Below are positions 14,211 through 53,362 of a DNA stretch of 59,467 nucleotides, one piece after another. Position numbers and translations under genes: made by a program. Origin of the DNA: Phoronis australis (taxonomy: Eukaryota > Animalia > Phoronida); the NCBI GenBank assembly GCA_002633005.1, contig NMRA01000468.1:288917-348383 (forward strand). The letters are read 5' to 3'. The notes beneath the pieces are model-generated. The model did not search any database. It was given only the letters and a program-made list of their open reading frames with translations, and was not told where the DNA came from. The stretch's first letter is position 1. Every line of letters begins with the position of its first letter.

Positions 14211-14250
14211 GTATTGTTTCGCACATGTGGAGTAATCTTGCAGTTAGTTA

Positions 14251-16501: not shown

Positions 16502-16600
16502 AGAAAGGGAACACCTTTGCACTACGCAGCCTGGGGAGGAAACCTAGAGATTGTCAAGCTACTTTTAGAAAAAGGAGCTTCAAAAAGTGCACGAGACCAG
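16502..16600 (+). CDS. ANK-ZU5-protease gene: ankyrin-repeat exon (RKGTPLHYAAWGGNLEIVKLLLEKGASKSARDQ)
   Basis: ttgcag acceptor, gtattt donor, 99 nt = one 33-aa repeat, phase 0-0. Near-consensus TPLHxAA..G..EIVKLLL.KGA. This frame is not in the ORF track. Confidence 0.92.
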
Positions 16601-16639
16601 GTATTTCAGGGCAAACCTGTAGCCAAAAACGGATTGATT

Positions 16640-16775
16640 TAAACCCCCTCGACCCCTTCGACCCCCACACCTCACTACCCACAGCCCTCTTGACCCATGA
16701 CCCCTTCGACCCACGTCCCACAACCCCCTCGACCCATGACCCGTCGACCCATGGCCCACAATCCCCTTGACCCAG
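16640..16775. repeat. Degenerate C-rich tandem repeat (cgaccc... units)
   Basis: Recurring cgacccc/gacccat motifs. Confidence 0.7.
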
Positions 16776-16909
16776 TCTACACAAGCTCGACTCTGTCTGG
16801 ACCTACACCTCTAGAACAAGCGCTGACCTGCAGGACAATCGAGTCTGCCCATGAAATTAGCTGGTATTTCAGTGTTTTTTTTGAAATTAGGAGAGTCGAT
16901 TCGGAAAGT

Positions 16910-17438
16910 ACGCGACGGGTCTGATCGGGCTCCGAACCACTGGCCAGGATAACAAGCCGCTTTTGTGTTTAGAACACAGAAAATCACAAGTCTAAACAAC
17001 ACAGATCTAGGTTCTCCTGTCTGTATCTCACGGAAGATACTTCGAAATTATCTCCGAACACACCCTAAACTCCTGCTACGGACCTTATTGGCCTGCCGAA
17101 CTTTGTAGGCTACGGTGTGTCCAAATACCAATAAATCCGTAAAAGTGAAATAAAACAACACGTTTTTGTAAGAACTCGGTGTATTTTTAAGGGTTTTACA
17201 TCAAAGTTTGATGATTTATTGGTGCTAAACGATGACTCCAAGCGATAAGCTGACACCAGTAACCCGTGTTGTGAACTACTTAACTGAACGCGTGTGAAAC
17301 CGATGACGTAATTGGATAATTTCAACACCTCCGTCTGCCGTCAGGTGTCAGGTAACGCAACCGGACGTGTCGTTATGGAATAGAACTACTCGATCTAAAT
17401 TGATACAAATTAGGTTGTTTTTTGGGTGGCATGCTCCT
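16910..17438 (+). mobile_element. Kolobok-type DNA transposon, 3' fragment
   Basis: Highly similar to ~33935-34459. Ends gggtggcatgctcct|TTAA. Confidence 0.8.
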
Positions 17439-17671
17439 TTAAGGGCTTAGGATTTCTGGGGTGTAAGGCACCGAAGGCACAGGCATCGTTTAATGACATG
17501 CGGTTTTCATTTGGTTTCTGATTATGGACCACAACGGAAATAAGTCTTTGAATTTTTTATGTTATCCGTGTCTTGTACGTGAACTTTTATTTTTTGTCTT
17601 GTGTTTTTAGGTTTTTCTTTTATTTCTCTGTACTTGTATGACTCTAATAGATTTATTATATTTATTTGTAG

Positions 17672-17770
17672 TACCATAGGTTTCCCCTACACTACGCTGC
17701 GTTGGGAGGTAGTGGCGATGTCTTTGCCTGGTTAAAAGACCAATCACCAGAAACAAATAAAAAAGACCTG
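17672..17770 (+). CDS. ANK-ZU5-protease gene: ankyrin-repeat exon (YHRFPLHYAALGGSGDVFAWLKDQSPETNKKDL)
   Basis: ttgtag acceptor, gtaagt donor, 99 nt, phase 0-0. PLHYAA..G and N.KD motifs. Confidence 0.88.
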
Positions 17771-20960: not shown

Positions 20961-21020
20961 CTTTTTAAAAAACTGTTATTGAAAATGACGTGTATACTAA
21001 TTACAATTTGTTCCTTTCAG

Positions 21021-21095
21021 GTGGGTAATCTTCCAATCAATATCTACGAATCACAAAGCAGTACGGTTGATTTTGTAACAATTCACATGCTTCAG
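21021..21095 (+). CDS. ANK-ZU5-protease gene: exon (VGNLPINIYESQSSTVDFVTIHMLQ), capping ankyrin repeat
   Basis: tttcag acceptor, gtgggt donor, phase 0-0. KDL|VGNLPI continues the ankyrin D..G.xP pattern. Confidence 0.8.
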
Positions 21096-22816: not shown

Positions 22817-22898
22817 GAGAAAAGGGAAAATCAAGTGTTAACATCACATTCAGAAGAGATTCAGCACCGTCTGAGGACTGACAAGGCATTATTAACAT
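22817..22898 (+). CDS. ANK-ZU5-protease gene: linker exon (EKRENQVLTSHSEEIQHRLRTDKALLT)
   Basis: ttgtag acceptor, gtacga donor. Phase 0-1 bridges the flanking exons exactly. Confidence 0.75.
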
Positions 22899-23491: not shown

Positions 23492-24049
23492 ACCACTTTT
23501 CTAAAAGTTACACCACCTTTATGAAATGCAGATTATCTTTAAACCTAGTCTAAGTCCAGTATAAGCCAGGTTGAACTTTAATCCACCTTTATGAAATCGG
23601 CTGATGATGTTTAGCTAAACTTTTATACAGCAATGCTGATATGGGAGAGCAATACCAAACTTTTCGCTAAAGTTTTGCTTAGCCTTCATGAAATGGACAT
23701 CTGGTCTAAATACTGGAAAGGCAACTGTCTCTAAAGTGGGAAAGACATTCAGAAAAAATTGGCTCACAGGTGAAATTTTCTTCAATAACTGTGCATCCAT
23801 AACAGTTCATGCCTCCTGTCTTAGAATTGCTTCCTGCAGGGAAACCATATGCCATGTTCAAGCTGCAAAATATCCACGTTTTAAAATTCATGGGATGTGA
23901 TGCGTTTTTTTTCTCCGCATAGTATTGACTGGCTTACAAATGTCGGCCTGTTCAAGGCTCGTTACACATGTAGTTGTCTTTTATCTTAAACTGTAACAGT
24001 CTGCAAAATGAATACGTTTCGTTTGTAATCATTACACTTTCCCTTTAAG

Positions 24050-24807
24050 CGATTGAAAGTGAAGGCGTGTCATACGAAGTGATAGAGGTTGACAATCCCT
24101 TGATGATGAAACTTGCCAAGAACGAACTTGATACAGGTTCGTTGTACTTGCTGGCGAAAACGATTTGTGTGGTCGTTTTTGAACCCGCGAAATTCGAACC
24201 GCCCGTGAGAGTTAAAGTAAACGTGAACAGCATTTTGCGACAGATGGGAGTAACAAGTTGTGACGAAGCCGGCTTTTTCATTTTACGCAAAACAAACGGA
24301 AAAGTGGATAACGTCACCAATGAAAGTCATCCTCGGCTGGAGGGCAAAGAGCTTATTTTCTCTTGTCATCATTTTTCTGATTTTTTTATCGGGTTTAGCA
24401 AAGTGAAGAGATATATCGAGAAAATACGCACGCTATGGACGGGGACATTCGCGGCGTACCTGTGTCCTTCGGTGACCAAAAATGGAAAATGTTTGGATCT
24501 AGCCCTAGTGTGTCACACTCCATATGGCGAAAGCGTAGCTCATCCAGGTCATAGGAAAAATTTAATAGAAATTCACCGTGATTGGAAAATCCGAATTAAT
24601 TTCTATTGGTTCACAACGGGAGGTAAGAAAGAACAAGAACTGTTCCATAAAAAGGCTGTTGACATGGAGATGTGGGGGACAGTCGGCGAACGTATTGCAA
24701 GAAAAGCTTGTCCAACGTCTGTAGAGGGTTCTTCAGTCACTGTTGAGGTGTCGTCAGTGCAAGGAAATGAGGAAGATCACATATGTATTTTATGTGACAA
24801 CGTCAAG
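24050..24807 (+). CDS. ANK-ZU5-protease gene: large exon with ZU5-like domain (PAKFEPPVRV...HHFSDF) and a UPA-like beta region
   Basis: Longest ORF in the window. An in-frame stop at 24046-24048 forces the aag acceptor (phase 1). Ends AAG|GCAAGT (GC donor, phase 0). The F..PV.V and HFS motifs are characteristic of ZU5; the UPA call rests on position only. Confidence 0.8.
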
Positions 24808-24822
24808 GCAAGTAGATTCTGA

Positions 24823-24856
<34 letters not shown>

Positions 24857-24862
24857 GTAATA
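24823..24862. repeat. (AAT)n microsatellite
   Basis: Direct reading. Confidence 0.95.
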
Positions 24863-25369
24863 AAAAAATAAACTATATTTAAAGAGGGTGTCCATCAAAA
24901 TGTTATAGTGAGGTACTCCGTAATTTTTCCTAAAGCTGCTGTCTAAAAATCAAAATGCACATGTTTGTGTGCGTGTGCGTGCTTATGCGCGCGTGTGTGT
25001 GTATGCTGTACCCTCGGTATTAGACTTCAGTCTGATATATGACCACCCACAACGTTTTTCTCATAACATGTAGTAGCCCACCTGAATGGGTACATGTCCT
25101 TTATTTTTGGTCGACGTGAACTCATTTCTGGCGCGCCCTTGTTTCTGTTCTAGTCTATGAATTTTAGCAAAAAGTTGTCTTAAAGCCTACCTTCAAAGAA
25201 ATGCTGTTATTTTAAATCAATTGTGCCACATACTGCTTATTTAGCCTTAGCAAGAGAAGAAAACACGAGTTTAATCACTCAAATGTAAGTCTGTCAAATG
25301 ATTGGTGAAGTTGCCTTTTCGTGCCATATTACGTCACCGCGAAATCCCAGCACAAACAACAAAAGGCAA

Positions 25370-26667
25370 ACTAGAAAGATTATTGTTACGGTGTGACAAT
25401 AATGGACTCTTCGCTTGTGTATTACACGATTTTTTATGGGAAGTTACTGACAGCAACCCGTTAACCAATTTGAAATGGAATTCTTTAAAATTGTAGGAAA
25501 AATAACATGTTAATATTATGATGACATTTCCACTATTTGACCCCTTTTTGTGCATTATGAGCCCGGATGAGGGGAAAATTGTAAACTCGATTAAAAGTGT
25601 GGTTAATGCTAAGAATGACAGATGTTTTACTTTAAGCACATCACAATACAAGATGAATGAATTGGTCAAACTTCCAGATGAAAAATGCACCTAATGACCC
25701 ATGGGTGCACCAAATGACCTAAAAAGTTAGAATTCAAACTCAATCGCCCTTTGTAAACAGATATTTAATTTGAAGTCTCTAGCTCAAAATTTTAGTTTGC
25801 ACTCAGTGACCTTTGACCAATTTTTCTGATTGGTTAGGCCTATTGCAAAGTAAAGTAGGGTATTCAATTTGCATGTTGACTTACACCAGTGTGCTAAAAT
25901 TGAAAAGTATTCCTTGAAAAAGGTAAGAGATATAACATTTTGAACGTTACATGACCTTTGCACTAATTGACCCTATCCGGTGCATTTTAAGCGTCTTTAG
26001 GAGAATTATTGCAAAGCCCATGAAAAATGTGTTGAATGCAGAGAATCACAGTTGTCTATCGGTTGACACATCAAAATACTTGGTGAATGAAAAGGTCAAA
26101 TTTTCAGGAGAAAAATGCAGATAATGACCCGATGTTTGCACTAAATGACCTGAAACTTTGGATTCCGAATTGAATTACCTGTGCCAATCAGACCTGTGAA
26201 TTTGTAGTGTCTAGCTCAAAATTTTAGTTTGCACCTAATGACCTTTGACCTATTTAACCCGATTGGATGACCCGATTAATTAGAAATTGTAATTTTTTTA
26301 AATTGCCCTCTTAACTTATACGTGTGCACCGAATTTCAAAAAGATTTTTAACTGAAGAAGAAGTAGCATTTTGAAAATTATATGACCTTTGCATCAAACG
26401 ACCTCTTCCGGCGCCATATGGAACATGATCATATAACGAATCAAAATTGCTGTACTGTCAAAAATAATATGCTGAATTTAAAGAACACACCTGCACCCAT
26501 TTTGGAGTTATTAAGCCTCGAATTTGGTCGGAAGAGGAATAAGAATAAAATTGAAGAAAACCCTGGAACAACAGTACTTTGCGCTTGCACACGAAGAGTA
26601 ATAAGAATGAAATTGAAGATAACCCAGGAACAACTTACAGTTCTCTGCGCTTACACGCGCAGAGTAA
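25370..26667 (-). mobile_element. Helentron/DINE-1-like non-autonomous element, inverted relative to the copies at 29065-35924
   Basis: Reverse complement of the 30564-31859 unit: subTIR head TTACTCTGCGCGTG with hairpin, internal diverged repeats, 3' palindrome and CTAG end. Confidence 0.8.
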
Positions 26668-26995
26668 AAATAGTTGTATTGAATAGAGGTCTGAATAGAA
26701 CATTCATCACTTGAAGGTATTGTAGTGAAGCGACTTCTATTGCGTTATGACGTATTGATTAACCTACTTAATTGATCTGTTTTTGGATGCAGTGGAAAAT
26801 TCTCCACGATAAAACTAGTTGTATTAATGCTTGAATAGTTTTCGTTACTACGGCTTACTTGATGGTGTCAGGATTCACTGAACCTTCTACGAACAATCAA
26901 ATTTTGCATATACTATCACAGGTGTTTGCCCTCCAACACCATAAACTCTGTCCCAAAATTCATCCCATGCCTGTACCAAATGGTAAAAATCGCTC

Positions 26996-27012
26996 AATAT
27001 ATATATATATAC

Positions 27013-27070
<58 letters not shown>
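26996..27070. repeat. (AT)n-(TG)n compound microsatellite
   Basis: Direct reading. Confidence 0.95.
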
Positions 27071-27072
<2 letters not shown>

Positions 27073-27229
27073 CTTGTTCTTGGCCTTAGACAGTTTGTTC
27101 AACAGTCTTTCGTATTTTCTACATAAATGTCTTTCTTCAGATGGCAGTTGAAATAGTAGATCACCGAGTGTGAGTGGCATCACAAACACAAACGTATGAG
27201 TAAATATAAAATAAGAAGTTGGAATACTT

Positions 27230-28830
27230 AGGTCAGTTCATAGGCAGCCAAGGTCTCTGGACAGACCCCAAAAAGTATCTGCCATACTAGATGCATAGAA
27301 ACAACCAAACATCCATGAGCTACGCCGTTTCCTTTGAATGTTTAATCAACAGGTGAAATTCTGCCCCAACCTAACAGACTTAACAGAGCCAATTCGTGGT
27401 TTGCTGAAATCCAAATCGGCTTGGTTGTGGAACAAGTGTCATACTGATGCATTCTTGAAACTCAGTGAAGAGCTGGCTTCAAACCTTATTCTATGTTTAT
27501 ATGGTACCGACCGGAAAACCGTTGTTTCAGCAGATGCAACTAGCTATGGCTAGGAGTCGGTCTTATGCAACGACAACCTAAAGGTGACCTGCAACCAGTT
27601 GCCTTTGGGAACCGATCCACGACAGAGACCGTAAGACTGTATGCCCAAGTAGAAATGGATGTATTATCAAGGATATTGGCCATAGAGCATTGGTCAGATG
27701 AGCTCATTGACTTGGACTTCCAAGTACAAACTGACCACAAACCTTCGTACATGTACATTCGGTATCAACGAGGACAATCGACGACTATCTTGTGAGAATA
27801 CAACGGTTCCGTATGCGTTTGATGAGGTACACATTTACTGCTTCACATGTTGTTTGAGAGCTGCTATGTGCAGCTGATGCGTTGTCCAGAAAACATTTCG
27901 CTTCTGATATTCCAAACTCACCAGCGAAGGACGAGTCAGAGCTCGGTAAAGAAAGAGAATGCTATGTACCTAGCGTAGTGCTCTGTGCACCTCAATCAGA
28001 TCACCGTCTCGACGAGATTAGTATGGTGGCCAGGGTTGTCATCAGACATTGAACAAATGGCTGCTACCAGTAATATTTGTCAGAGAATTCATCGTCGACA
28101 AATAGAGCCTATAAGATGAACATAATTTGAAGATCGACCGTGCTGACGCGATGGCGCAGATTTCTTTCTGTACAAACAAAAATCTACCTTCTCGCGGTAC
28201 ACTAATACTCCAGAGACATTGGGGTTGTCCTTGTGATGCGCAATATGAATACTTCAGAGACAATTATGAACCTGAAAAAAGTCTTCAGTCGTCATGACAT
28301 CCCTGACATACTCTTTTCTGACAAGGGCTTTCAATTTGCGTCCTCAGAGCTTAACAACTGTCAGTTCATGGGGTTTCGAACATGTCATTTCGTCGCTAAG
28401 ATACTCACAATCCAATTGGAAGGCAGAGCGTGCAGTTCAAACCAGCAATGATATGTCGCAAAAAACAATGGTGAATATCACGCTCTAGTGACATAGAGAA
28501 ATACCCCGCTCCATAATGGATTTTGGCTAAGCCAACTGAGTATGGAAGAAGATTGAGAACCATAGTTGCATGTCATCCCGATCTTCTACAACCATGCATT
28601 CCGGATACCGACTCTGTCTGTCGGGAGACGAAAGACTAAATACCTACGCGAGATGGCGAATGACTACAACCCTAGGCACAAGGTTATTGAACCAGAGGAT
28701 ATAGATGTAGGATCTCGCGTACATATTCCTGATTTGTCAGATGATGGTCAAGTTGTTGGAACTCATGAGCCTAGTTCTTTGCTTGTGGACACATATAATT
28801 GTACTATTCATCGAAACACCTTGTGTTAAG
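27230..28830 (+). pseudogene. Gypsy pol remnant (RT connection/RNase H and integrase)
   Basis: LTEPIRGLLK, VSADATSYG, QPVAFGNRS..ET..YAQVE, QTDHKP, FSRHDIPDILFSDKGFQFAS, YSQSNWKAERAVQT. Many frameshifts and stops. Confidence 0.92.
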
Positions 28831-29064
28831 AAGTTACCACCAGAGATGCCACCGACCATAGTGTAGCTAATTACTGCTAAGTCGCCAACCTGTGAGGAAC
28901 CTCCTTCAGTCAAAAGTTTTGATAGTTCCAGTGATAGTACGCCGATACTTAGGAGAAGTACTCGACAGAAGCGTAAGAACCGGAGATACAACGGGAAGTG
29001 TTGGAAGACCCTAGTTATAGTGTTTATAAGACTTCGCATAGTATCTATACGAACTCTAGTCTAG

Positions 29065-32000
29065 TTACTCTGCGCGTGTAAACGCAGAGTACTGTTGTTC
29101 CTGGGTTTTCTTCAATTTTATTACTCTGCCCGTGCAAGCGCAGAGTTTTACTGTTCTACGTATTTTATCTTCTTATTCTTATTATTCTTATTCTTCTTCT
29201 TCTTTGCTTTTCATATTGTTATTACTCTTACATTCAATCATTTAGAACAATAATATTTATTGTTATTGATAAGAGAGTTAAGGGATTTATATTGATAATA
29301 TTTTTTCGACCCTAAATGCACTAGGATGACCTGAAACGGTTCAGTTAGTGCATTTTTCAAAATGCTTTTTCTTCTACAGTTTTTTAGATAGACTCTTCGA
29401 ATTTTGTTAACAAGTAGGGACTAAAGAAATGCATGAGAAATTTACACGGATTTTTGAGCTAGACCTTTCTTAATAATGCGTATGATTACCATTCTTAAAG
29501 GAAGTTCAGTCACAAACTTTGGGGTCACTAGGTGCAAATTTGGGGTCATTAAGTGCATTTTTCTGTTAAATTTAAGACTTTTTCAATCAGCTTGTACTTA
29601 ATTTATGCATTAGTGAGAGCGTTCAAATTCATGGTTGTTCAACCGATCAAATTCTATTGATCCCATGGATTTGACTCAAAATGCACCGCATTGCCCCAAA
29701 AAGGGTCAAGGAGTGCATTCCGTCGAATTGCTTCTCCTTTTTCAGGTTTTTAGATAGACTCTTCGCATTTTGATAGCAAAAAGGCACTAGAGATCCGCAT
29801 AATAAAATTTACTTGGAATTCCCATCGGATGAAACGAACCGAGTTTCCGGGTCAAAGGTCATTAAGTGCAAACGTGATTTTTGAGCTTCAGTTTTCATAA
29901 TCATGCATATCATTACCATTCTAAAAGGAAGTTTAGTCACAAACTTTGAGGTCACTAAGTGCAGTTTTGTGTAAAATTTAAGACTTTTTAATCAGCTTGT
30001 ACTTAATTGATGCAAGAGAGTTCAAATTCATGGTGGTTCAACCAATTGCCGATCAAATTCTATTGATAATACGTGTAATGACCCAAAACGCACTATAGGA
30101 CCGCAAGAGGGTCGACCAGTATAATTCTTTGAAGTACTTCTCCTTCTGCGATTTTTGAGATTGCCTGTTAAATTTCGTGAACAGCTTGACGCCATATAAG
30201 AGCACCTACATCTTACATGGAATTTCGATCTGAACAACGGAAACGAATTTCTGGGAGAAAGGTCAGTAAGTGCAAAAGAGACTTTTGAGCTAGACTTTAC
30301 ATAACCATGTATATCATTTTCATTTGCAAAGGAAATCCATTCACAAATTTTAGGGTTATTAGGTGCAACTCTGGGGTCATTAAGTGTCGTTTTCTCTTGA
30401 TATTCTAACTTTTCACTCTTGCCAGGGACATCTCTCTCTTTCACACAAAAGATGCAACTTCTGCGCAATGTAATGCGCCTGTACTCCATTCTGCATGTGC
30501 GTACACCACGCGCAGAGTTGTAAGTGCGCATACGCAATTGCGTTCTAGTTCTTCTTATTCTTATTACTCTGCGCGTGTAAGCGCAGAGTACTGTTGTTCC
30601 TGGGTTTTCTTCAATTTTATTCTTATTCTTATTCTTATTACTCTGCGCGTGCAAGCGCAGAGTACTGTTGTTACTGGGTTTTCTTCAATTTTATTCTTAT
30701 TCTTCTTCCGACCAACTTTGACACTTAATAACTCCAAATTGCGTGCAGGTACGTTCTTCAAATTCAGCATATGATTTTTGACAATAACTAAATTTTGATT
30801 CATCATGTAATCATATTCCATAACGCACCGGAAGAGGTCATTTGGTGCAAAGGTCATGTAACTTTCAAAATTTTACTTCTTCATTTTTAAAGCAATTCTT
30901 TTCAATTCCGTGCACAGGTATAAGTCAATAACGCAATTTAAAGAAATAATTTTCTAAGTAATCGGGTCATCCAACCAGGTGAAATAGGTCAAAGTTATTT
31001 AGGTGCAAACTAAAAGTTTGAGCTAGACACTTCAAATTGACAGGTCTGATTGGCATAGGTAATTCAATTTGGAATCTAAAGTTTCTGGCCATTTAGTGCA
31101 AACATAGGGTCATTAGGTGCATTCTTCTTCTGAAATTTTGACCTTTTCAATCAGCAAGTATTCTGATGTGTCAACCGTTAGACAACTGTGATTCTCAGCA
31201 TTAAACAAACTTTTTATGGGCTTTGCAATAATTCTCCTAAAGACGCTTATAATGCACCGGATAGGGTCAATTAGTGCAAAGGTCATGTAACGTTCAAAAT
31301 GTTATCTCTTACGTTTTTCAAGGAATTCTTTTCAATTTCAGCACACTGGTGTAAGTCAACATACCAATTGAATACCCTACTTTACTTCTGAATAGGCCTA
31401 ACCAATCCTAAAAATAGGTCAAAGGTCATTGAGTGCAAACTAAAATTTTTAGATAGAGACTTCAAAATTACATATCTGTTTACTAAGAGCGATTGAGTAT
31501 CAATTCTAAATTTTCAGGTCATTTGGTGCACCCAGGGGGTGCACTTTTCTTCTGAAAGTTTGACCAACTCATTCATCTTGTATTCTGAAGTGCTTAAAGT
31601 AAAACATCTGTGATTTTTAGTATTAACCACACTTTTAATCGAGTTAGCAATTACTCCCTCATCGGGGCTCATAATGCACCGGAAGAGGTCAATTAGTGGA
31701 AGGGTCATCAAAAAAATTAATATGCAATTTCTCCTACAATTTAAAAGAATCCCTTTTCATATTGGTAAATGGGTTGCTGTCAGTAACTTCCCATAATAAT
31801 TCCTGTAATACGCACTCGCAGAGTCCGTTATTGTCACACCGTGACAATAATCTTTCTAGTTCTTCTTATTCTTCTTATTCCTCTTACGACCAACTTTGAG
31901 GCTTAATAACTCCAAATTGGGTGCAGGTAGTCTTTAAATTTAGCACATAAGTTTTGACAGTACATGAATTTTGATTCGTTATATAATCATATTCTATGAT

Positions 32001-35000
32001 GCACCGGAAGAGGACATTTCGTGCAAAGGTCATGTAATTTTCAAAATGCTACTCCTCTTTTAACTTAAAAGCTTTTCTTTTCAAATTCGGTACACAGGTA
32101 CAAGTCGATAAGGCAATCTAAAAAAATACTTTTCTAACTAATTGGGGCATCCAATCAGATTAAACAGGTCGAAGGTCATTAGGTGCAAACTAAAATTTTG
32201 AGCTAGACACTTCAAATTCACATGTCTGATTGGAACAGTTAATTCAATTTGGAATCGAAAGTTTCAGGTCATTTAGTGGAAGCATGGGGTCATTAGGTGC
32301 ATTTTTCTTCTGAAAATTTGACCTTTACATTCTCCAAGTATACTGATGTTTCAACCGTTAGACAACTGTGATTCTCAGTTTTAAACACATTTTTCACGGG
32401 CTTTGCAATAATTCTGTTAAAGACGCTTATAATGTACCGGATAGGGTCAATTAGTGCAAAGGTCATCTAACGTTCAAAATGATATATCTCTTACGTTTTT
32501 CAAAGAATTCTTTTCAATTTCAGCACACTAGTGTAAGTCAACATGCCAATTAAACAACCTACTTAACTACGCAATAGGCGTAACCAATCAGAAAAAATAG
32601 GTCAAAGGTCATTGAGTTCAAAATTAAAATTTTGAGCTAGAGACTTCAAAATTACATATCTGTCTACTAAATGTGATTGAGTATGAATTCTATATTTTTG
32701 GGTCACTTGGTGCACCCATGGGGTCATTAGGTGCATTTTTCTTCTGAAAGTTTGACCAATTCATTCATGTTGTATTCTTCAAGGAGAATGCCTCCCGATT
32801 TAATTAGTCTTTTTTACCATCTTAATTGGTCCATATCCACATCGCCTCGCATACGGTCGACCTTACCTTGCCGAGAGGTGTTGCGTTAACCTTTGAGGAA
32901 GTTGAAAAACGACGCTAGCGACGTCAGTGGTTCATATGCAGAGTGAATGCTGCTATGTTGCGGTGCATCGTTCCCGCTTGTCCGAACTAAGCAGGTGCGA
33001 GGAAAGCGGGCATATCGTTTTTTACTTCCTCGAGAGTCCGAAATGCTTAGGAAGTGGCTCATGGTAGTGAAGAATGAAATGTACGCTGTAAATATCAAGT
33101 ATGAGGCCGTGAAACATCTCCGTGTCTGTGGCCTGCAGACGTCGACAGTGCCTGACGAATGCCGGATTACCAAATAACTCCATACGTTCCGTTGTCTGAG
33201 CTTGTTCACGGCGCCTCTCTAGTATTTCTTCATCACTGGATTCCTGTTCGAATTGATAGCCTGTAAAACTTAACGATCCACCTGCGAAGTCGGGACTGAT
33301 GAGCTCTAGCTCGTCCTAAGGGATTGCGAGTTGCCATTTTGGCGTTTTACTGAGCGTTCTGTTTCAAAATGAGTTATTCTCATCCTAACCAAAACTTATA
33401 TAAAACTGAAACAAAGTCTGTCTCATTAAATGCAATTTGTAATGCCTTTGGAGTGTTCGTGAGTGCTAATGAATTGAGAAGACAGCAATGAATCAATCAC
33501 TGCGTTACCGGCTTCAGATGCAATAATACTAACTGACGGGACACCGAGGCCGTGTGAGCTCATGCTAATTTAGTGTTTGCTGGCAGAAACTGTTTTGAAA
33601 CAACTCGATTTCCATCCCAAGACCAGGTGTTAGAGGAATTAATCTTTATTTACATTTACAATACTCAAATAATGATTGTCAATGTACAACTTCTGCCCTG
33701 ACGTCCTGCTGTCGGTGAAAGCGGAACCTGAATTCGCGGGCCCCGACGAGTGAATAGATTTGCAGTTTCGTGGCTAACTCACCAACATAATCACGCACAC
33801 ATTACTTTGGCTCACTAGTATAGCATTTTCTTGACTGGAAGTTTAGTTTCCACTGAGCTTTGGCTGGTTTATGTTCGTGAAGTGTGATCAGTTTCCGAGC
33901 CACTGGCCGGGATATCGAGTCACTCCGGCCGGCTGTGACGGGCCTGATCGGGCTACGAGCCACTGTCCTGGATAACAAGCGTTTTATGTTTAGAACTCAA
34001 AAAATCATAAGTCTAAACAACACAGATCTAGGTTCTCCTGTCTGTATCTCACGGAAAATACTTCGAAATTATCTGAAAACACACCCCATACTCCTGCTAC
34101 GGACCTTATTGGCCTCCAAACTTTGTAGGCTACGGTGTGTCCAAATACCAATTTACTCCGTAAGAGCAAAATAAAAAACACGTTTTTATAAGAACTCGGT
34201 GTATTTTTATGGGTTTTACATCGAAGTTTTATGATTTATTGGCGTTAAACGATGACTTCAAGCAATAAGCTGACATCAGTAACCCGTGTTGTGAAATGCT
34301 GAACAGACTGCGTTTGAAACCGATGACGTCATTGGATAATTTCAACACCTCCGTCTGCCGTCAGGTGTCAGGTAACGCAACCGTACGTGTCGTTATGAAG
34401 TAGAACTACTCGATCTAGATTGATACAAATTAGGTTGTTTTTTTGGGTGGCATGCTTCTTTAAGTGCTTAAAGTAAAACATCTGTGATTCTTAGCATTAA
34501 CCACACTTTAAATTGGCTTTACAATTATTCCCTCATCGGGGTTCATAATGCACCGGAAGAGGGCAGTTAGTGGAAAGGTCATCAAAATATTAACATATAA
34601 TTACTCCTACAATTTTAAAGAATTCCTTTTCATATTGGTAAATGGGTTGCTGTCCGTAACTTTCCATAACATTTACCTTAATACGCACGCGCAGAGTCCA
34701 TTATTGTCACGCCGTGACAATAATCTTTCTAGTTCTTATTCTTATTCTTCTTATTCTTCTTCCGACCAACTTTGAGGCTTAATAACTCCAAATTGGGTGC
34801 AGGTACGGTGTTTAAATTCAGCATATGACTTTTGATACTATATAAATTTTGATTGGTTATATAATCATATTACATATTGCACCGGAAGAGGTCGTTTGGT
34901 GCAAAAGTCATATTATTTTCAAAATGCTACTCCTTCAGTTTTAAAGCTATCTTTTTCAAATTTTGTGCACAGGTATAAGTTAATATGACAATTTAAAAAA

Positions 35001-36479: not shown

Positions 36480-36650
36480 ATTCTTGATGTGACATCTTCG
36501 AATTTGGATGAACAGTGTGTGGATGCTTGTGCGTATACCATTAGTTTTGAGTTTTCATAAACCATTATTGTGAACTTTAATACGTTTATAAAAATGCCTC
36601 TCAGTGCCTTGCAATGAGCAATGAAAATCTGGATAATTTTATTCAACTTG
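36480..36650 (+). other. Candidate alternative/cassette exon of the ANK-ZU5-protease gene
   Basis: Strong acceptor (gtttttcag) and gtaagt donor at 36651. The phase-0 reading ILDVTSS...EFS stops at 36558-36560. ATG at 36614 (MSNENLDNFIQL) is in phase with exon 39867. Confidence 0.45.
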
Positions 36651-37593: not shown

Positions 37594-39605
37594 TACGGTG
37601 GTAGAGATATCATCGCTATTTTAAATAAATGAATGTTTACATTTACCTTGTTCTCCTAGGGGTAAAAAAATCATATCTAAGTGAGAAAGAATCCGCCAGG
37701 ATGGAAACTTGATTCCTGTCTGGTGTAAATAAATTAAACTCGGTTGGAAATAATTTCAACCCTAGTGTGAAAAAGTGTCTCCAAAATGGGAAGAGTTTAC
37801 ACCTAGGTGAGAATGAATTGACCGGAAATATTTTCTATGCTGGTGTAAATAATTTCGAACAAGGTGGAAAAGATTCCATAAGGTGATATGTATTTCCACC
37901 CAGGCGCATGTTGTTTCAACATACATGTAGTCGTAAATAGTCAACACAAGGGGGGAAATCATTTGCACTCTGGTGACAACATATTCCACCTAGTATGTGG
38001 ATGTATTTTCCACCCTGGTGAAATTGTTTCAACCCAGGTGCAAACCTGTTCTCACCATACACGTACTTCATAAGGTTGGAAAACATGACGCACGAACTCT
38101 TAGATATGAATCGACCTTATCCAATAAGAAAGCATAGGTACTGTCAGTCTCGTCCATACAGTTGGGCGTTGGTCGAATCCCTTCCCCCATTAGAAGTTGG
38201 GATAATTTCTCTTAATCAGGGCTGCTAAAGCACACTGGTTGACTGTCAGTAGGTTAGAAATGGCTTCTAGTTCAGCGTTGTTGGTTTCATTCTTTCAGTA
38301 CACTCCCGCAGTACTTTACGGTAAAAATTTGAAACACCGAGTCTTCCAGACGGACAAAAATAGAATCTTGACGATCGAATATGTTGCATGTTCCAGAACA
38401 CACTTATTTCGTCTAATTCAGTTTTCAGCATGTGTATATCGAAAACTACAGCAGTCTTTATGTAAGGTATTTGATGGGCAATTACTACATCAATTCCCAG
38501 TTTCTTGAAATGATAAATCCATGTTGTACAGCGCTTTCTCCAACAAAATTTCTCTGGTTGGTTTTGGAGCGTCCATATAAAAGCACGATGTCTGAATTGT
38601 AGCGCGTGCGTCATTGTTCACATTGCGTAAAGACTGCATTTGCGCAGTGCTTGTTTTTTCAGATCAACAATTTGCTCTCACCACATTCGAAAAGCCACCA
38701 ATTGAATTTGAAAAATATTAGCAAACTACTGATGGGCCGTTGCTTGTTAAGGCTACCTCTAATAATAAAATACTGCGTGAAAAGCTGACAATTCCAACGC
38801 AATTATACAAATCAAACTTCTTCAGTTCATCCCATCGGCTGACATGCCAGAGTTCATTTGGACCTCTGGTACAATATTGCCTTCTTTGGAGACGTCTTTG
38901 TCTTCCTAGTTCGACACCTCCTGCGTGTAGGCGCTTTACACCACTCACGCAATTTCGCAATCACCGATGACTTAGTGCACCTTCTGAAAGATTGGCGTTT
39001 GCAGCTACCAAGTAATGACCATTTCAGAAGATTCTTTGAGTTAGTCGCTGAGTACCTCCACCCTCGGCCAAGTCTCTCTAAAACAAATTTCAACTGAACA
39101 CGATTAATATTTTAATCGTGACAAACACACATTAATTCAATTGTTTCCCTGTACTTGAACCCCAGATGAAAGTAATACATAACCAAATTGTCTCTGTTTA
39201 AATCTCCAAAAAGTAGAGAAGGCGCCTACCCTGTAATTTAATCGCAGATGTGTTGAAAGAAATGACTGCCACAATTGACCTTCTCCTCAAAACAATTAGT
39301 CCAAGCACAACAAATACGAAAATAGGTGCCCAGATAAATTAGATATCGGCCCAGGCTGCAATTTTTAGCCGGTATGAGTAATTTACACATAGGTTAAAAT
39401 AGTTTCTACCCGGGTGCAAACTATTTTCATTTTGGTCAAAATAATTTCCAACCGGGTGGATATTACTTTTCGATAAAACTTTTAAAAACTGACGATGAAA
39501 ATATTTCCACCCAGTTGAATTCATTTTCACATAGGCGTAAATTGTGAAACAAAAAAAAAACAAAAGTTTATCTATAATGGCTGTGATAATATTTCGGCCA
39601 CCGTG
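37594..39605 (-). mobile_element. IS3EU-like DDE DNA transposon, degenerate
   Basis: Minus-strand remnants GVELGRQRRLQRRQY...GPNELWH...FSRSIL, VVRAN...YGRSKTNQR and ELDE...WN..HIRSS...CPSGR match the eukaryotic IS3-like integrase-core pattern. Imperfect TIRs TACGGTGG.../...CCACCGTG and many subterminal cacc(c/t)agg repeats. Confidence 0.7.
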
Positions 39606-39693
39606 TTATCATGAAGTTTCAATTTATTGTAGAATTGCTTTGTCTTTAAAATAATAACATCTTCTTGCACTCCCACGGTTTGTTTGCCAATAG

Positions 39694-39784
39694 GACATCA
39701 ACATTTTGGGCAAAATTTACTTGACACCTCCAAAAATTAACGGTTACACCCCTGGTGGCGGTGGTGATGGTAGCAGTTTTATTG
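39694..39784 (+). CDS. ANK-ZU5-protease gene: Gly-rich linker exon (DINILGKIYLTPPKINGYTPGGGGDGSSFI)
   Basis: caatag acceptor, gtaaaa donor. Phase 0-1 joins the ZU5 exon to the protease exon in frame. An 82-nt intron follows. Confidence 0.6.
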
Positions 39785-39866: not shown

Positions 39867-40070
39867 GGGCACCCCTACAGTTGATGTTGGCTCGTGACAC
39901 GTGCAGGGATGACATTTCCAAACACTTCTTGGACAAATTGACTAGTGCATTCTCATCTGTAGCAAGGATAACGTGGTCTAATGATTTGTGTGGCACAGGG
40001 TTCCGCGTTGGAACACGCTACCTTATGACTAATTACCACGTGGTTAAGGAGGTGACTGCTGATGTTCCAG
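39867..40070 (+). CDS. FAM111-like trypsin-like serine protease exon with catalytic His (CGTGFRVGTRYLMTNYHVV)
   Basis: ttgtag acceptor, gtaaat donor, phase 1-1. GTGF...TNxHV is the trypsin-like peptidase motif. Confidence 0.92.
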
Positions 40071-42984
40071 GTAAATCATTCTTGTCAACATAAGCACATG
40101 TAAAAGAATTCTCCCAGACCCTGAGAGCTTGTTGTATCACAGGATGGGGACCTGTATTTCGTAGTTCGATTTGTCATGGGCATGAGAATTAATTACTAAG
40201 AGATTACGCTAAAAAGAATGATTTGCTGTACTTTACCTCGTTTCAGACGCTCATATTGAGAAAGAACTTTGTTCCGTGGAGAATCAGTCACTATTTTAAC
40301 ATGAATTAACGTAGTAAGGATTCTATACTACTTACGCAAGGGGACCTAACTGAATTGTATTTCCAAATTTGCAGTTCAAGAGTTATTTATTGTTTTTCTG
40401 TTCAAATGTTTTTGTGTTTGAGGACAGAAAGAAAGGGAGAAAGGACCATTCACTCAGACAATTACTCCTGACTATTCTCGTCATATTTTCAAAAGCAGTT
40501 GATAACAATAACATGGTGTACAGGCTTTCCCAAACTTATAAGTCAGGTTTACTTTGTGTTTTTCAATTTTATAACAACAGGGATTATGATTTTGAGGTAA
40601 ATTGTTTAAAGGCAAAGATTTTTAATGCTAATTGTTGTTGAGTGCGAGTACATGTAAAATAGAGAGCTATAGTTATGAAAAAGTTTGTCATAGGATAAGT
40701 ATTGGGAGACCTTATAAACTGTAGCAAAACATCAGATCGTTTTTATTTAAAAGAATATATTCGTTTAAGACACTTCATCAAATTAGTTTTATATAAGGCA
40801 AGAAATGCTGAACATGTTTGCAATAATAAATCACATGCTCCAATATGGCCGACGCGATCCAAACAAAGTGACACAAATTTCGCCACAAAACTTGCAATAA
40901 CTTTACAGTGCTTGCGCCGGTTTTGATACTTTTTCGATTTTTACGGAGTAGAATGTACTACTTTTCCGATGATAGCAAAGTACTTTTTCAAAACGAGGAA
41001 AAAATAAAACTGAAAAAAATAGGTTCGACCCATATCGGTTCCTAGGTTCGACCGGCCTACGTAAGGAACTAAATACCAATGCTATTTTAACATACTAAGT
41101 ACGCGTAACATTCCAAAAAAAATCAACGACCACAAACTACAAACTATAAATACACTACATATGCAAACGAATCACGATATATTACTAACAAAACAAAATA
41201 ATGAAAACTTTTCGAGCAAGCCATAGCACATTCAGTTACAAGGAAAAAATGGCGGCGTTCAGGACAAGTTCCTGAACTGATGAGCCGGAAATGTGGGTAC
41301 GGAAATAACCGATGACAACCGGTAATCATACGCTCAGAGAAAAGGGTCAACTACGGTTGAAAAATCGCTTTTGGCAAGAAAGGCGAAAAGAATGTAAATA
41401 AAGGGTGTCGAAAATAAGATTTTATGTAGTAAGTATTTTCGGATACTAGAACCACATGGGCAGTTTGCAACAAGGACTTTAAACACTTTAACAAAATGAT
41501 CTGTGGGAAATGCAAAAGTGAGGGAAGAAATATTTAATTTTTTTTCTCGAAAAAGTTGTAACATGTAATAGTAATTATCAAATTTATCGCACCAGTTTTG
41601 CAAATGGGTTTTTAGTACATACTTTATTGAAATGCACATAAATATTATTGTTATAGCTTATTAGTTTACGTTTGCTCCTGTCATTTTTTGGATTAAAATC
41701 TAAACGATAGTATTGTATTTGAATGTCAAACATTCTATTTATTTCTCGACTTGAGCACCTCTCAAGTTAGTTGTTTTTTTCATCGTCTAGGAAGCCACTA
41801 ACAAATAATAATCCACAGCTATAAACATCTTCATTGAACGAAGATTTGCTATTTGTATTAGTTCTCCATTTTGCCAAATTAAATGATCCTCAATGGTACA
41901 TTTTTTAAAAAAAGGTTTGTTAAGCTGTGCGCTATCACAATTACCTTCCTTATAAAAGTTATATTATATCGCTGTTTTCAGCTTGTTAACTTCAAAATTG
42001 CATGACCATATCAAGTCTCCTCCAAAACTTCCAAGAACGTGTGTAGGAAAAAAGTTCCAAGTCCCTTGCTCGGGATACTGGAGTTTCATAATCCAGTCCG
42101 CTGAAAGGCATTCCTTTACCAAATTAATAATTGTAACTCTTAATTCACCGTCCTAAGATAATACCATGGTAACCCTTTTTACCGTTGGAGATTTCCCCTG
42201 CCCATATGTCCCTTATTTATTTTTTTGCAAAGTCATTTGGCAGGGCAAGGACAGATATCACATGGTTGAGCTTTATTAAACCCATTGTTTTAGTTATAAG
42301 TATTCTACCTTTTTGTAATTAGTTTTCTTGATTTCAAAGTAGCGTGGGTTTCCTTGAGTTTTACTATTTTTTTTCTTCAACGTTCTCCCTTTTCTATCCC
42401 TTTCTTAACTACCAAAATACATACCCAGGGTGATCCGATACTGATATTTCCTTATTCAGATACGATGTTTTACAAACACTTTAAGTAAAAATCAATCTAT
42501 CAGCATACATGTAAACAATGGCATCAATTCATTGACCAAATTTTGTTTTATTCACATATTCAAGGTAAAATCTCAAAAACCCTGTCACAGTTTTGTGAAT
42601 TATTGCTTCGTTTTTATCCAACTTTTATTTTTCCATAAAAACACGAAAAACATTCTTGTTACTTCTCATACAAAAGTGGAACATTTTGCAAACAATTCCT
42701 CATCGAGTTTTGGAGAACATTGCTCAAAGCACAATGTCTAAAAGTTTAAATTAAACCTAATCAACCATTTCCAAGTAACGATGTTCCGACGTTAGCCAAA
42801 CTTGGCCATTTTTCCAGAATGTGACATAATCTTAAAGAACTATAGGTGACTAGATATTTTTAGAAAAGTAGCGGTATTTTCAGCCAGTTAGCTATTCTAT
42901 GGTCTTAAACATATGCATTTGTTCAACTGAACTCAACTATTATTAAAATCTCTTGGTCTGTTTACACCGCCATCTTTTCTATTT

Positions 42985-44199: not shown

Positions 44200-46023
44200 C
44201 AGAAGTTGTTACTTAAAAACCAAAGGCATTTTGGCACCAAATTTCATCATGAGTGTGTGACCTATAGATCGTTTAAAACCTTTGATGACTAGGCCTTCAA
44301 ATCGGATCTTGCTCTTGCTCCCTGGTCAGTCATCGATGCCTATGCTGACATTGGTGATGCTCTTGATGCATGATACAAGTTATTTAACAGTATTTTAGAC
44401 GAACATGCTCCATGGAATACTAGACGTGAGAAGAGATTACGTCAGCCTGAATTGTTTAGTGGTGACATTTTTGAAGCTATAAAGCTCAGGGACAGTTTAC
44501 GTAAGTGCGGAAATTATGAGGGCTAAAAATCAGAGCGAAATCGTGTTGTAACAATTATAATTAAAAAGGTTAAGAGTGACTATTACACTTTGCTGATCAG
44601 TAGTGATCTCAAGAATTCCAAAATGTTATGGAAAGTCAACAGAAAAGTTGCTCCTAAGGAAAAATCCTCATTACCTGCCATGACAAAATTCAGATTGCCA
44701 ATAATTTTAACAGTTTTTTACTGACATAGCTAGCAAACTTACTCGTGATCTTAAAGATACACACGCCACTCATAAAGATTTGATTGGCTTTCTTAGTCCA
44801 GAGTTGAAAGTGACATAGGTTATGATATTCCTCTGGTAAATATGGAATTTGTAAACGGTCTTAATCTTAAAAAATGATCTCTCTTTAGTCTGCGAAAACA
44901 CGGTTGACATGTATGCAGATGATACTACTTTGTCTGTTGTGGCAAAGTCGCTGATCGCTTTAAAGGACAGTCTCCAGTCTGATCTGGATATGGTTGCTAC
45001 CTGGTGTACTGATAATAAAATGGTAATTAATGCTGAAAAAACAAAATGTACGAGTATTGCCTCAGAGTAACGGCAAAGTAGAAGTAATCTTGTTATTTCC
45101 AATGTACACCTCAAATTTGTTGACAGTGAAAAGTTATTAGGTGTTACTGTAGACAAGACCCTCAGCTGGTCTAGCCATATAAATGGGACTGTGTCCAAAA
45201 TTAGGCCGCGCCTTGGTCTTCTCCGGCGTATATCACCATTTCTTCCCACAGAAGGGCGCCTGCAATATTTCAGCGCTTGTGTATTCCCTCGGTTAGTTTA
45301 TTGTAGTACAGTGTGGCCAGGATGCAATGGAAAATTAGTTACCTCTTTATTGAAGGCTCAGCAGCAGGCGGCCAGACTTGTTCCAGGTGTGCCTTTTGAC
45401 ACTCTATCAACTCATATGTTCATTAGACTGGGTTGGCTCCCTGTTGACAAATATTTTATTTATAGGCGTTTGTGTATGATGCATAGGTACTTTCACGGTA
45501 CTGTACCGACTTATTTATCTCGTTATCTCGCACTTCTTCGAAATAGCCACCAAATCAGGCCAAGTTTTTGTGCCTCAAACAATTTGGTTTTGTCCAAACA
45601 CAGAACTTCGTTTTATTCTAAGTCCTTCTTTATTCAGACCATCCAACTGTGGAACAATTTGCCTAATAGTCTTAAGGATGCTGACCGTTATGATAATTTC
45701 AGACACCACCTCATCAGTTACCTGTGGTCGTCATAGCTATCCCAACTTTTTGTCTTTCCAATACATATACCATAAACATTTTATTTATTTATTTATTATC
45801 TTTAATTCAATTCGTAAATCCAATTTGTAAATACTATTATATTTAATGTATCTAGTTGTATCTAAATTTAATCTGTTTATCTAACTTAATTTAATTAATC
45901 TAATTTCTTGCTGCAGAGGACCATGCTGGATATTAGCCTTTGGCTAATGCCTATTTTACATTTATTGTATTTTTATCCTCTTTCAATGAAGTTCATTATT
46001 CTTCTTCTTCTTATTATTATTAT
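44200..46023 (+). mobile_element. CR1/L2-type LINE 3' fragment, degenerate and internally deleted
   Basis: YRSFKTFDD...APWS...ILDEHAP. MYADDTTL with YADD at 44912-44923. LLGVTVDKTLSWSSHI. LWNNLP. 3' UTR ends in a (CTT)n(ATT)n tail. Confidence 0.9.
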
Positions 46024-46375: not shown

Positions 46376-46689
46376 GTCAAGTTCGACAGCAAAAACGATC
46401 CTGCATGTTCAACTACAACAGAACACCCCGTGACGGTGATGCTAGAAACTTCCAGCAACTTTCATTTGCACCTCACCCCATTGTCGTGTATGACGAGGAA
46501 CTGGATTATGCAATTCTGGAATTAATAGACGACCCAAATAACCCACTGCCAAAGCCATTGGAAAAGTTTAAAAGGCTCAGAGATGCAAACAAGACAATAA
46601 GTTTTGCTGGCCATCCCAAAGGCGAAGCCATGAACGTGCAACTGCAATGTTCAGTGGTTCGCACGTCCGGTCAAGATTTAATGAAATTG
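46376..46689 (+). CDS. FAM111-like serine protease exon with catalytic Asp (DEELDYAILEL...FAGHPKG)
   Basis: ctttag acceptor, gtgagt donor, phase 1-0. F.Y, LDYAILEL and GHP motifs. Confidence 0.92.
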
Positions 46690-50440: not shown

Positions 50441-51032
50441 TTAAGAGGTACGCGTAAGATTCCGAGAATGGGGCAAGGCACGACCGTATGATTTTTTTGT
50501 ATACGATTTCGGCAACATCACTTTTCAATTTTCGAAACATCAGATTTGAGTTGGCGACATAAGATTTTTGTCAGCTCGCCAAGTGCGACTTGACGTTAAC
50601 CCAAAGTCGAGCAACTGGAACCGATTGAATAATTTCATTGAACGTTGGCATAAAGGTCTTTCATTTGATATTTTGGTGGATTCAAATACTTCAGCGCCAT
50701 TTTGTGTTTAAGCGTTTTTGGATTATGTGTAGAGAACTGGTTAAAAGATTTCCATGAAAGTTAACTCAGAGGTATCTTATGGCAAAGCGATTGCACTCTG
50801 TAATGTCTATGCACATTCAATCACTTCAGAATCTGTGGTGGATATCTTATTTTCGGTAAGGGATTTGTTGTTTGGAGAAAAGCATTTGTGAATAATATCT
50901 AGGGATCCGATTTTTGAATTTTACAAAGTTATACCATTAGATTGCGCCAGCTCCACTGGATTTTCATGCGGATTCAGCTACAGCAGCGCTTACTAATAGC
51001 CAGTTTGTTTGCGAACGTTTCTGGATGAGGTG

Positions 51033-51276
51033 CATGCACGCATCCAAAGGAGGCTCGAGCGACCCCCCAATTTGGCGAAGTGGGCAAAAAAGTTCAAGCT
51101 CAGAGAAATTAAGTCTCCGGAAAAAGTGGAAAACGCGAGAAAAGTCCTTTTGAAACCAAGAACCAGCAAAATTCGGGTGATGTACAATTCATTGCTCTGA
51201 ACCTACCAAGTGAATCTTAGTAAAAGGTCTAAATTCTCAAAATTTGAGCCCCCGTTTTTAGGCTGGGTGCGCGCAT
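51033..51276 (+). mobile_element. MITE with ATGCGCGCACCCA-type TIR
   Basis: catgcacgcatcca...tgggtgcgcgcat. Inverted homolog at 54835-55047; a 3' end also occurs at ~11355-11393. Confidence 0.7.
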
Positions 51277-53029
51277 AACTGGAGAACCGGTTGAAGGATT
51301 TTAGTGAGTGTTGCTGAAGGGCTTGGGATGACAATGTGCCGACACCAATAAATTTTCGGGCGCATTCAAACGACTGAAGCACATCCAAGTGGCTATTTTG
51401 TAGTTGAAAAAGAGCATTTTAAATGTTGTTTGGAGGAAAAAATTTCCAGATGATATCTAGAGCGGATTCAACTACATGTAGTATTGCCCTCCATATTTCT
51501 TTTTCTGTGAGAGTGTTTCCGGATGATATGTAAAGGAATTCAACGAGAGTTGACAGACAGATTTGTGATAGCAATGCACCAGCAACATTAAGTTTTCAAA
51601 CTCATTCGACCACTGCAGCACCTCCTAGTGGGATTTTCAATAGTTGTTTGGAAGAAGATGTTTGCTGGATAATATCCAAAGGAGTGATTGACGGATTGAC
51701 ACATGTTCATAATGTCAGTGCTCGGGGACAGTATTATTTTGGGCGGATTCGACCACTACATAATATAGAATAAATGTGGGCTGTCTGGTTGTACGAGATG
51801 TGCTCGGGCCAGTCGGTTGGGACCAATGCTATGGAATCCTTTCCAGATATCTTGAGACTTGATCAACAGATGTTAATAAAACTTCACACAGAGGTATGTG
51901 ATATCAATGCTGTGGGACCATTAGATTTTCTGGCAACTTCAGCTGTTTGCCGGGGTGAATAGCATTTCTGGATGATATCAAGAAAAAAGATTGGTGCATT
52001 TGAATGTCACTTAACACAGGTTTGTGATGTCAATGCGCTTCCATCATTACATTTCGTATGGATTCAACTACTTCAGCACCTCCTAGCATCGTATTGTTTG
52101 AGGTGCACCGTGGGGGTATATCAACGCCCCAATGTTGCTCTTGTATACTAACAAAAAAATAGTTGACACTCGTGCGTGACCCCTTGTCCTTCCAATTGCC
52201 CATTCATCTGGTGAGATCAATAGGACACAAAACTGAATCGCAAGCTCGATTATGTCGTCTTACAGTGTACCTTGTCTCATTAATACAAGTGTTTTATTTC
52301 GTCATTCTGTTAAATAACTCACGACATAAACAGGCCTAACACAGTGGTTTTGTATTATCATGATAATGCATGTGGATCTTTTTTTAACTTGTATTGACTG
52401 TTTGTGTATGGTGGCTTTAGTGTAGCAAACTATATTGGCCAATATGGCGCTCGGATTGCCAATAGAACGGACGGAACCAAAATGGGATGGAAATGCAAAA
52501 AATGGGAAAGAAGGCGTTTGAAATTAGCGCAATTGTATGATTGATTTAATAGCCCGCCATCAAATTGTTGGGAATGCCAGTTTTTGAACTGGAAATTTAT
52601 GTAATATCAAAGCAGCACTGTGGAATGAGAGACACTTTCCGGTACTACATTTACACGTATATACGAGTTTACGTGCAATTTAAGTTTCTACTTGTTTGTG
52701 TGTGCAATCTGGGAACGCAAAGCGATAACAAATCCGGCCTTCCCATCATAACAATTTTTCCGATTTCTCCCACTTCCTTCCCGTTCTCGTCCTTGCTTCC
52801 TGTTTCTCGCCCATCCTTCCCATTTTTGTGTGTGTCCTTCTCATTGACAGTCCGAACCTACTGTGGATGATAAATCCCCAGTAGTTAATGTATTTATGTT
52901 TATCAAAATGTTTACCACAATGTTGTTTCAGAAATTTCACTTCAACCACAAATGTAACTAGAAAAGTCTCACAAAACGGTGAGATTAATGAAAACAACAT
53001 TCCGCATGGGTTATTTTGCTTCCTTTTAG

Positions 53030-53362
53030 TACAATGAGGCTGTTAACTGGTCAATGGCTACCTTTCATCTTAACGCGTACCAACAGCTCCTCGACCGAGA
53101 CCGTGTTCTTTACCACACAAGCGAAAAGTTCACCAAAGGCAGCTCCGGCTCTCCTGGACTGATCAGTGACGTCAGAGACAATGCGTGCGTAGCTGCTGTA
53201 CATGTGTGTCAGTTTCCGGGGGTTCCTTCTGAGTTGATGACCCATGTTCCAGATAAGTACACTGTAGAACAAGGTATTCGGATTGAGGCCATCTACAAAC
53301 ATTTGTTTGAGACGAATGAGGTTTTATGCTCAGAAATATTTCCTGAAGGTGAACCTGCGTAG
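53030..53362 (+). CDS. FAM111-like serine protease terminal exon with catalytic Ser (VLYHTSEKFTKGSSGSPGL...AAVH...VEQGIRIEAI)
   Basis: ttttag acceptor, phase 0, TAG stop. GSSGSP nucleophile motif; the C-terminal EQG..I..I is typical of FAM111-like proteases. Confidence 0.93.
   Translation, partial: YNEAVNWSMATFHLNAYQQLLDRDRVLYHTSEKFTKGSSGSPGLISDVRDNACVAAVHVCQFPGVPSELMTHVPDKYTVEQGIRIEAIYKHLFETNEVLCSEIFPEGEPA

Follow-up and report, generated by a model that had tools for sequence, protein, structure and literature searches.

A candidate self-cleaving ankyrin-ZU5-like protein carrying a likely FAM111A-type protease domain in the phoronid Phoronis australis

We examined a plus-strand locus in a 59,467-nt stretch of the Phoronis australis contig NMRA01000468.1 (the whole stretch is referred to as the window, and its numbering is used throughout), which is animal DNA of 39% GC with long introns and transposon remains. 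When nine exons of this locus were joined by computed splicing, they gave a single open frame of 684 amino acids and a stop with matching phases, and the remaining two frames contained 42 and 54 stops. All nine acceptors are AG, seven of the eight donors are GT, and the remaining one, at 24807, is GC. The exons had been proposed in an initial annotation, and all of their coordinates, their phases and the open frame were borne out by the computed splice; the motifs TNYHV (40028-42), LDYAILEL (46501-24) and GSSGSP (53138-55) and a glycine linker (39754-77) were located as well. The N-terminus had been taken to be missing in the initial annotation; an in-frame ATG at 16475-16477, nine codons 5' of the first ankyrin exon, is a possible start codon. 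At the other end, transcription of the 3' untranslated region beyond exon 9 reaches at least 54300. At least two ankyrin repeats had been claimed; one scores above the Pfam cut-off (E=4e-10), but the second falls below it (E=0.04-0.1). The joined protein has no signal or membrane segment (maximum hydropathy 1.3). With its exons, frame, motifs and catalytic triad, the locus would encode ankyrin, a likely ZU5-UPA region and a likely FAM111A-type protease in one cytosolic protein (Table 1).

Table 1. Coordinates of the exons and associated features in the window (AF2, single-sequence AlphaFold; Ig, immunoglobulin).
Feature	Positions	Strand	Assignment	Evidence
Exon 1	16502..16600	+	ankyrin repeat	Pfam Ank E=4.1e-10, above cut-off
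Exon 2	17672..17770	+	degenerate ankyrin repeat, 99 nt	phase 0-0 as exon 1; Pfam Ank E=0.04-0.1, below cut-off
Exon 3	21021..21095	+	possible beginning of a third decayed repeat, and linker	splice sites, phase; no Pfam match
Exon 4	22817..22898	+	linker	splice sites, phase; no Pfam match
Exon 5	24050..24807	+	likely ZU5 (to about 24400), helix, beta-rich UPA-sized region	AF2, Foldseek, VIA-align
C-x-H-F-S motif	24364..24378	+	predicted self-cleavage F227/S228 of joined protein	
GC donor	24805..24813	+	consensus, phase 0	sole + strand match in window
Exon 6	39694..39784	+	glycine-rich linker preceded by a short, hydrophobic, strand-like segment	phase 0 acceptor
Exon 7	39867..40070	+	protease start, catalytic His (40037-39)	Trypsin_2 E=0.005; spliced to 46376 in RNA
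Exon 8	46376..46689	+	catalytic Asp (46504-06), FAM111A-like segment	spliced to 53030 in RNA
Exon 9	53030..53362	+	catalytic Ser (53144-46), FAM111A-like S1-pocket H/F/E, stop	
Ig exons	7924-8004, 10159-10407, 12642-12760, 13676-13826, 14051-14210	+	two and a half Ig domains, in frame, N-glycosylation sequons	Pfam

The proposal that the C-terminal half is a FAM111-type protease is supported by three features. The best Protein Data Bank (PDB) match of exon 8 is human FAM111A (8s9l, E=0.031). The triad H459, D513 and S613 is intact, with a spacing of 54/100 compared with 54/102 in FAM111A, for which His385, Asp439 and Ser541 are reported as the triad and His556, Phe560 and Glu573 as residues near the S1 pocket (PMC10920703). 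Residues H632, F636 and E654 correspond to these last three by spacing, not by computed alignment. Because exon 7 alone has bacterial S1 proteases of the trypsin fold as its best PDB matches, ahead of FAM111A, and exon 9 found no match in a PDB sequence search, the assignment is likely but not proven. Trypsin_2 scored E=0.005 on exon 7 and 0.019 on exon 8, below the cut-off because the domain is split across exons. Ubiquitin-like (UBL) domains had no Pfam match on the N-terminal exons, which hold ankyrin and a beta-sandwich instead. Lancelet and coral FAM111 proteins without the vertebrate UBL domains have been described, and ankyrin or fused forms go unmentioned in that FAM111 review (PMC9798293). 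An in-frame ATG at 39884 could begin a protease-only form of 277 amino acids.

Exon 5 lies between the ankyrin and protease parts. Its open frame of 257 codons is not due to chance, because only 0.0003 such frames are expected in the window. The exon contains the motif C106-x-H108-F-S110, in which His, Phe and Ser are all intact and which both AF2 models place just ahead of the last strand, in the loop that separates strands 101-108 and 112-117. The motif was overlooked in the initial annotation. CxHFS is described as the self-cleavage motif of PIDD1 and Nup98, and HFS or SFS (CxH) as the mark of the autoproteolytic ZU5 domains of PIDD1, FIIND and Nup98, the motif being defined in three sources (PMC9162469, PMC3210808, PMC3482391). 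In particular, PIDD1 is reported to cut itself at His-Phe-Ser (PMC9162469; bioRxiv 2025.06.23.660994), CARD8 to be cut directly before the last ZU5 strand (PMC3210808), and a C-terminal CxH is described for the ZU5 superfamily (PMC3482391). Because the motif is present and precedes the final strand, an arrangement shared by PIDD1, NLRP1 and CARD8, the protein is predicted to cut itself between F227 and S228, and the same motif makes these three proteins a better model than ankyrin. The motif is a stronger clue to a ZU5 domain than the fold matches are.

The fold matches were obtained with AF2 models. The whole of exon 5 was modelled poorly (predicted local distance difference test, pLDDT, 41.6), and its first 131 residues reached a pLDDT of 57.7, with values of 60-75 across residues 41-130. 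In a Foldseek search with the 131-residue model, the five top probabilities (0.82-0.93) belonged to ankyrin chains bearing ZU5. We also compared this model with 48,161 chains using VIA-align. It matched ankyrin-B (6m3q_E) with Z 5.1, root-mean-square deviation 4.6 and 103 of 131 residues aligned, and ankyrin-R (3ud1_A) with Z 4.8, deviation 4.5 and 109 of 131 residues aligned; these two ankyrin ZU5 alignments are the longest among the 50 matches listed. Further structure comparisons of the exon 5 models had a similar outcome. The modelling is consistent with a ZU5 domain, which exon 5 is likely, but not proven, to contain. Exon 5 is marginally richer in CpG than the remaining exons (P=0.04), a difference on which no conclusion here is based.

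The 3' end of exon 5 bears on whether the locus is one gene. It carries the only plus-strand consensus GC donor in the window, where such a site in phase 0 has a chance of about 2e-4, and because this in-phase donor closes exon 5, the genome favours a single-gene fusion. None of the phase-0 exon candidates listed in 24830-39693 looks gene-like to us, and we take them for pieces of transposons or repeats. The protease could also be reached in frame, at 39867, from a GT donor at 24811. If the GC donor were unused, the frame would stop at 24820-24822, with AATAAA at 24859 and 24867. On these signals, the ankyrin part, the self-cutting module and the protease are likely to be fused in one gene.

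The reading that we tentatively favour, at a little less than an even chance, is a self-cleaved cytosolic sensor of the PIDD1/NLRP1 kind that would release a UPA-protease fragment activated by clustering. Exon 5 would be spliced to exon 6 through the GC donor, and the product would be cut at F227|S228, as the motif and its position suggest. By analogy with NLRP1 (PMC9162469), the ankyrin-ZU5 piece would then hold the 457-residue C-terminal piece and let it go only on being engaged or degraded itself. Once freed, the UPA domains may oligomerise and bring the protease domains together, a step that combines two published mechanisms, in that UPA is reported to lower the assembly threshold (PMC7794386) and FAM111A activity to depend on dimerisation (PMC10920703). 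FAM111 proteases have chymotrypsin-like activity. The protease might finally cut proteins of the invader or the host on the C-terminal side of aromatic residues, leading to defence or cell death. With somewhat greater reserve, we propose a single-chain, caspase-free "inflammasome" in which an ankyrin sensor and an autoprocessed ZU5 would restrain a UPA-FAM111 protease, release and UPA clustering would activate it, and a separate protease-only form would exist beside it.

The predicted protein can be compared with four known systems. It shares with PIDD1 (leucine-rich repeats [LRR]-ZU5-ZU5-UPA-death domain) the order of repeats, a ZU5-like domain with His-Phe-Ser at its end, a region of UPA size and an effector, and the predicted fragment matches the reported PIDD1-CC layout (PMC9162469); here, however, the repeats are ankyrin rather than LRR, there is one ZU5, a serine protease replaces the death domain, and there is no sequence match. 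As in NLRP1 and CARD8, in which FIIND (ZU5-UPA) is followed by CARD, cleavage ahead of the final ZU5 strand would set a UPA-effector piece free (PMC3210808, PMC7794386), but the motif is HFS and not SFS, NACHT, LRR and CARD are lacking, and the effector would itself be catalytic, making a caspase unneeded. FAM111A (PDB 8s9k, 8s9l) is alike in the exon 8 match, the triad spacing, the S1-pocket residues and an intracellular location, whereas the phoronid protein has an ankyrin-ZU5-UPA-like N-terminus, no UBL or PIP box was seen in it, and the match is only E=0.03. Ankyrins R, B and G (ankyrin repeats-ZU5-ZU5-UPA-death domain) also place ankyrin repeats before ZU5 and give the closest ZU5 fold matches among those listed; they differ in that here there are two or three repeats, one ZU5, a self-cleavage motif and a protease in place of the death domain. 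Pfam found no death-fold domain (death domain or CARD) on the exons scanned, and the protease occupies that position. The protein would thus act like the PIDD1, ankyrin, UNC5 and NLRP1 families but, having no C-terminal death fold, would not be a member of them. ZU5/FIIND autoproteolysis has been predicted to release effectors in TRADD-N proteins of marine animals (PMC8195603), and ZU5 is listed for cnidarian NOD-like receptors (PMC8260672). Our literature search found no account of a FAM111 protease fused to ZU5, although subscription journals, database annotations and supplements lay outside it and may hold one.

If the favoured reading is true, the switch that in PIDD1, NLRP1 and CARD8 frees a death-fold adaptor recruiting caspases would here release a protease instead, so that the NLRP1/PIDD1 switch would be joined to a FAM111A-like antiviral protease in an invertebrate defence gene. 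The ZU5-UPA switch would then be a portable module and a natural means of controlling a dimerisation-dependent protease. It would also suggest that FAM111 proteases were sensor-coupled defence effectors before their vertebrate link to replication forks.

Several observations weigh against this reading. Exon 5, searched whole or as four sub-pieces, matched no Pfam family and in particular neither ZU5, UPA nor FIIND; NCBIfam gave no ZU5 or UPA match and weak bacterial trypsin-fold matches only, a viral fold library gave nothing at E<=0.001, and a PDB sequence search with exon 5 returned nothing useful. Of the domains that the initial annotation expected, Ank was found, Trypsin_2 fell below the cut-off, and ZU5 and UPA had no Pfam match. 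In the 131-residue model the first 37 residues, at a pLDDT of about 30, are left without a fold; this N-terminal stretch of the ZU5-like domain may be too decayed to support cleavage. In Foldseek, this model had no match at E<=0.001, the ankyrin chains lying at E 0.05-0.09, and in VIA-align glycosidase beta-sandwiches reached Z up to 6.0 (the best match listed being a dextranase) compared with 4.8-5.2 for ankyrin ZU5. PIDD1, NLRP1, CARD8 and UNC5 chains are not among the structure matches listed. Thus, for the ZU5-like domain the fold resemblance is suggestive but profile support is absent. For the UPA domain there was no Pfam match, and the second half of exon 5 (125 residues after the motif domain), which is beta-rich and of UPA size, is unmodelled at pLDDT 28-40. 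The motif has P=0.0011 for CxHFS in 200,000 shuffles, a value that is post hoc because visual inspection had already picked the motif out. Across the six frames of the window, there are two occurrences of a looser form. Relatives of exon 5 were found in none of 806 candidates among longer proteins, and phmmer on 1.84 billion representatives gave none at E<=0.001; those of exons 8 and 9 were likewise absent from 139 and 34 candidates, respectively. These searches are weak blanks because they used single short exons and word indexes, and the animal coverage of the libraries is uncertain. An immune or cell-death role is an inference only.

We searched about a fifth of three raw RNA runs (X1-X3) and the contigs of X4, of unspecified library type, with identity floors of 90% on the protease exons and 93% on exon 5. 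The region 23624-25235, which includes exon 5, had zero reads in X1-X3 and zero matches in the X4 contigs. About 33 X3 reads would be expected on exon 5 if it belonged to the same mRNA (P=5e-15, or 0.04 with a tenfold 5' drop). The junction 24807->39694 consequently has no RNA support, there being no exon 5 reads; the spliced joint itself was not aligned directly. No loose read end at 39694 occurs among the 24 matches listed (599 more exist), and junction 39784->39867 is not among the matches listed. The protease exons, on the other hand, are transcribed and spliced on the sense strand, with four reads across 40070->46376 (all from X3) and seven across 46689->53030 (two from X1, five from X3 and none from X2). 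For the claim of a single polypeptide, the splice signals and phases are thus favourable, but the sampled reads hold no transcript that links the ZU5 exon to the spliced protease exons, which goes part of the way towards the refutation set out in the initial annotation.

The main rival reading, which this result favours, is a stand-alone FAM111-like protease of 277 amino acids, starting at ATG 39884 under an internal promoter near 38-39 kb, with the ankyrin-ZU5 half silent, decaying or a separate short gene ending at 24822. In X3, sense depth stays at 0 over 36300-36900 and again over 37502-38703 and is 0.9-1.4 starting at 38704, so that coverage seems to begin near 38.7 kb, but this signal overlaps a transposon. 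The stop and the two AATAAA just after exon 5 also fit such a gene, although the AATAAA lie within an AAT microsatellite tail. Transposon remains fill the 15-kb intron, and FAM111 proteins without UBL domains are known from marine invertebrates (PMC9798293). However, the GC donor is perfect and in phase, and exon 5 has neither stop nor frameshift and keeps its motif. The reads of X1-X3 swap about 330 intronic bases at 51629-51961 for other letters relative to the assembly, and the junction reads of X1 and X3 carry a coding substitution at 46688. Because their reads differ from the assembly, and with the identity floors unequal, the locus sampled in these animals may be a different haplotype or a paralogue. 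We regard a stand-alone protease as rather unlikely. Under the favoured self-cleaving fusion, the full form is probably induced on demand or confined to certain tissues or haplotypes, and the sampled animals show the protease half only.

A fusion may also be real with exon 5 as a non-cleaving scaffold, in the form of an ankyrin-like ZU5-UPA or some other beta-sandwich, whose only role would be to localise a FAM111-like protease that is constitutively active. Every ZU5 match is an ankyrin, the Z-scores are no higher than those of generic sandwiches, and the first 37 residues of exon 5 are unmodelled. The presence of CxHFS at the canonical position with intact His, Phe and Ser argues against such a scaffold, which we consider improbable.

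Five Ig exons upstream of the locus had been overlooked in the initial annotation. The second half of the third domain, a membrane exon and a clear signal-peptide exon were not found for them in the window, and we treat them as a neighbouring, incomplete gene, which may be truncated, host to a nested gene or the 5' end of the ankyrin gene. In UNC5, the Ig domains are extracellular. The last of these options would make the locus an Ig receptor whose cytoplasmic tail is made of ankyrin, ZU5-UPA and protease, its membrane exons missing from the assembly, or else a young deletion chimera; UNC5 is described as carrying intracellular ZU5-UPA (PMC9162469). The five in-frame exons (7924-14210) lie on the same strand, 2.3 kb upstream, without a 3' half in the window, and splicing from a donor at 14118 to 16502 keeps the frame, with 907 amino acids open. 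However, 14118 falls within the Ig cysteine codons, splicing from the natural donor at 14210 puts 16502 out of frame, the third Ig domain is half present, and no convincing membrane-spanning exon lies on the plus strand of the window, all of which leaves this longer gene with quite a small probability. An assembly error that joined two haplotypes or paralogous loci across the 15-kb intron, which is rich in repeats, is suggested by several 1.2-kb repeat copies of 85-88% identity in 25369-35926 and by the RNA disagreement between the two halves, but it is very improbable, since there is no N gap in 24808-39693 and the phases agree on both sides, and even if paralogues had been wrongly joined, the architecture implied would be no different.

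The preferred fusion gene is accompanied by other features in the window. On the minus strand, an open frame of 93 codons at 3544-3825 has a membrane-like hydrophobic stretch and no Pfam match and is a possible exon of a divergent gene. A single N at 15296 falls within a repeat copy and was not counted as a gap. The 1.2-kb repeat family occurs in direct and inverted orientation with an inner periodicity of 430 bp, and a decayed long terminal repeat retrotransposon pol lies at 27353-28829 (plus strand; RT_RNaseH E=8e-11, weak rve). A decayed integrase-core element on the minus strand at 38270-38960 (rva_4 E=0.005) lies where the sense RNA of the protease half seems to begin, and it is a possible promoter donor. 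The protease introns hold a highly transcribed repeat (40838-41482, depth >100) and an open frame on the plus strand (45071-45736) that by eye resembles a long interspersed element and has no Pfam match. Finally, a candidate cassette exon of 54 nt, in phase 0-0 and with good splice sites, lies inside the 15-kb intron at 37513-37566 on the plus strand.

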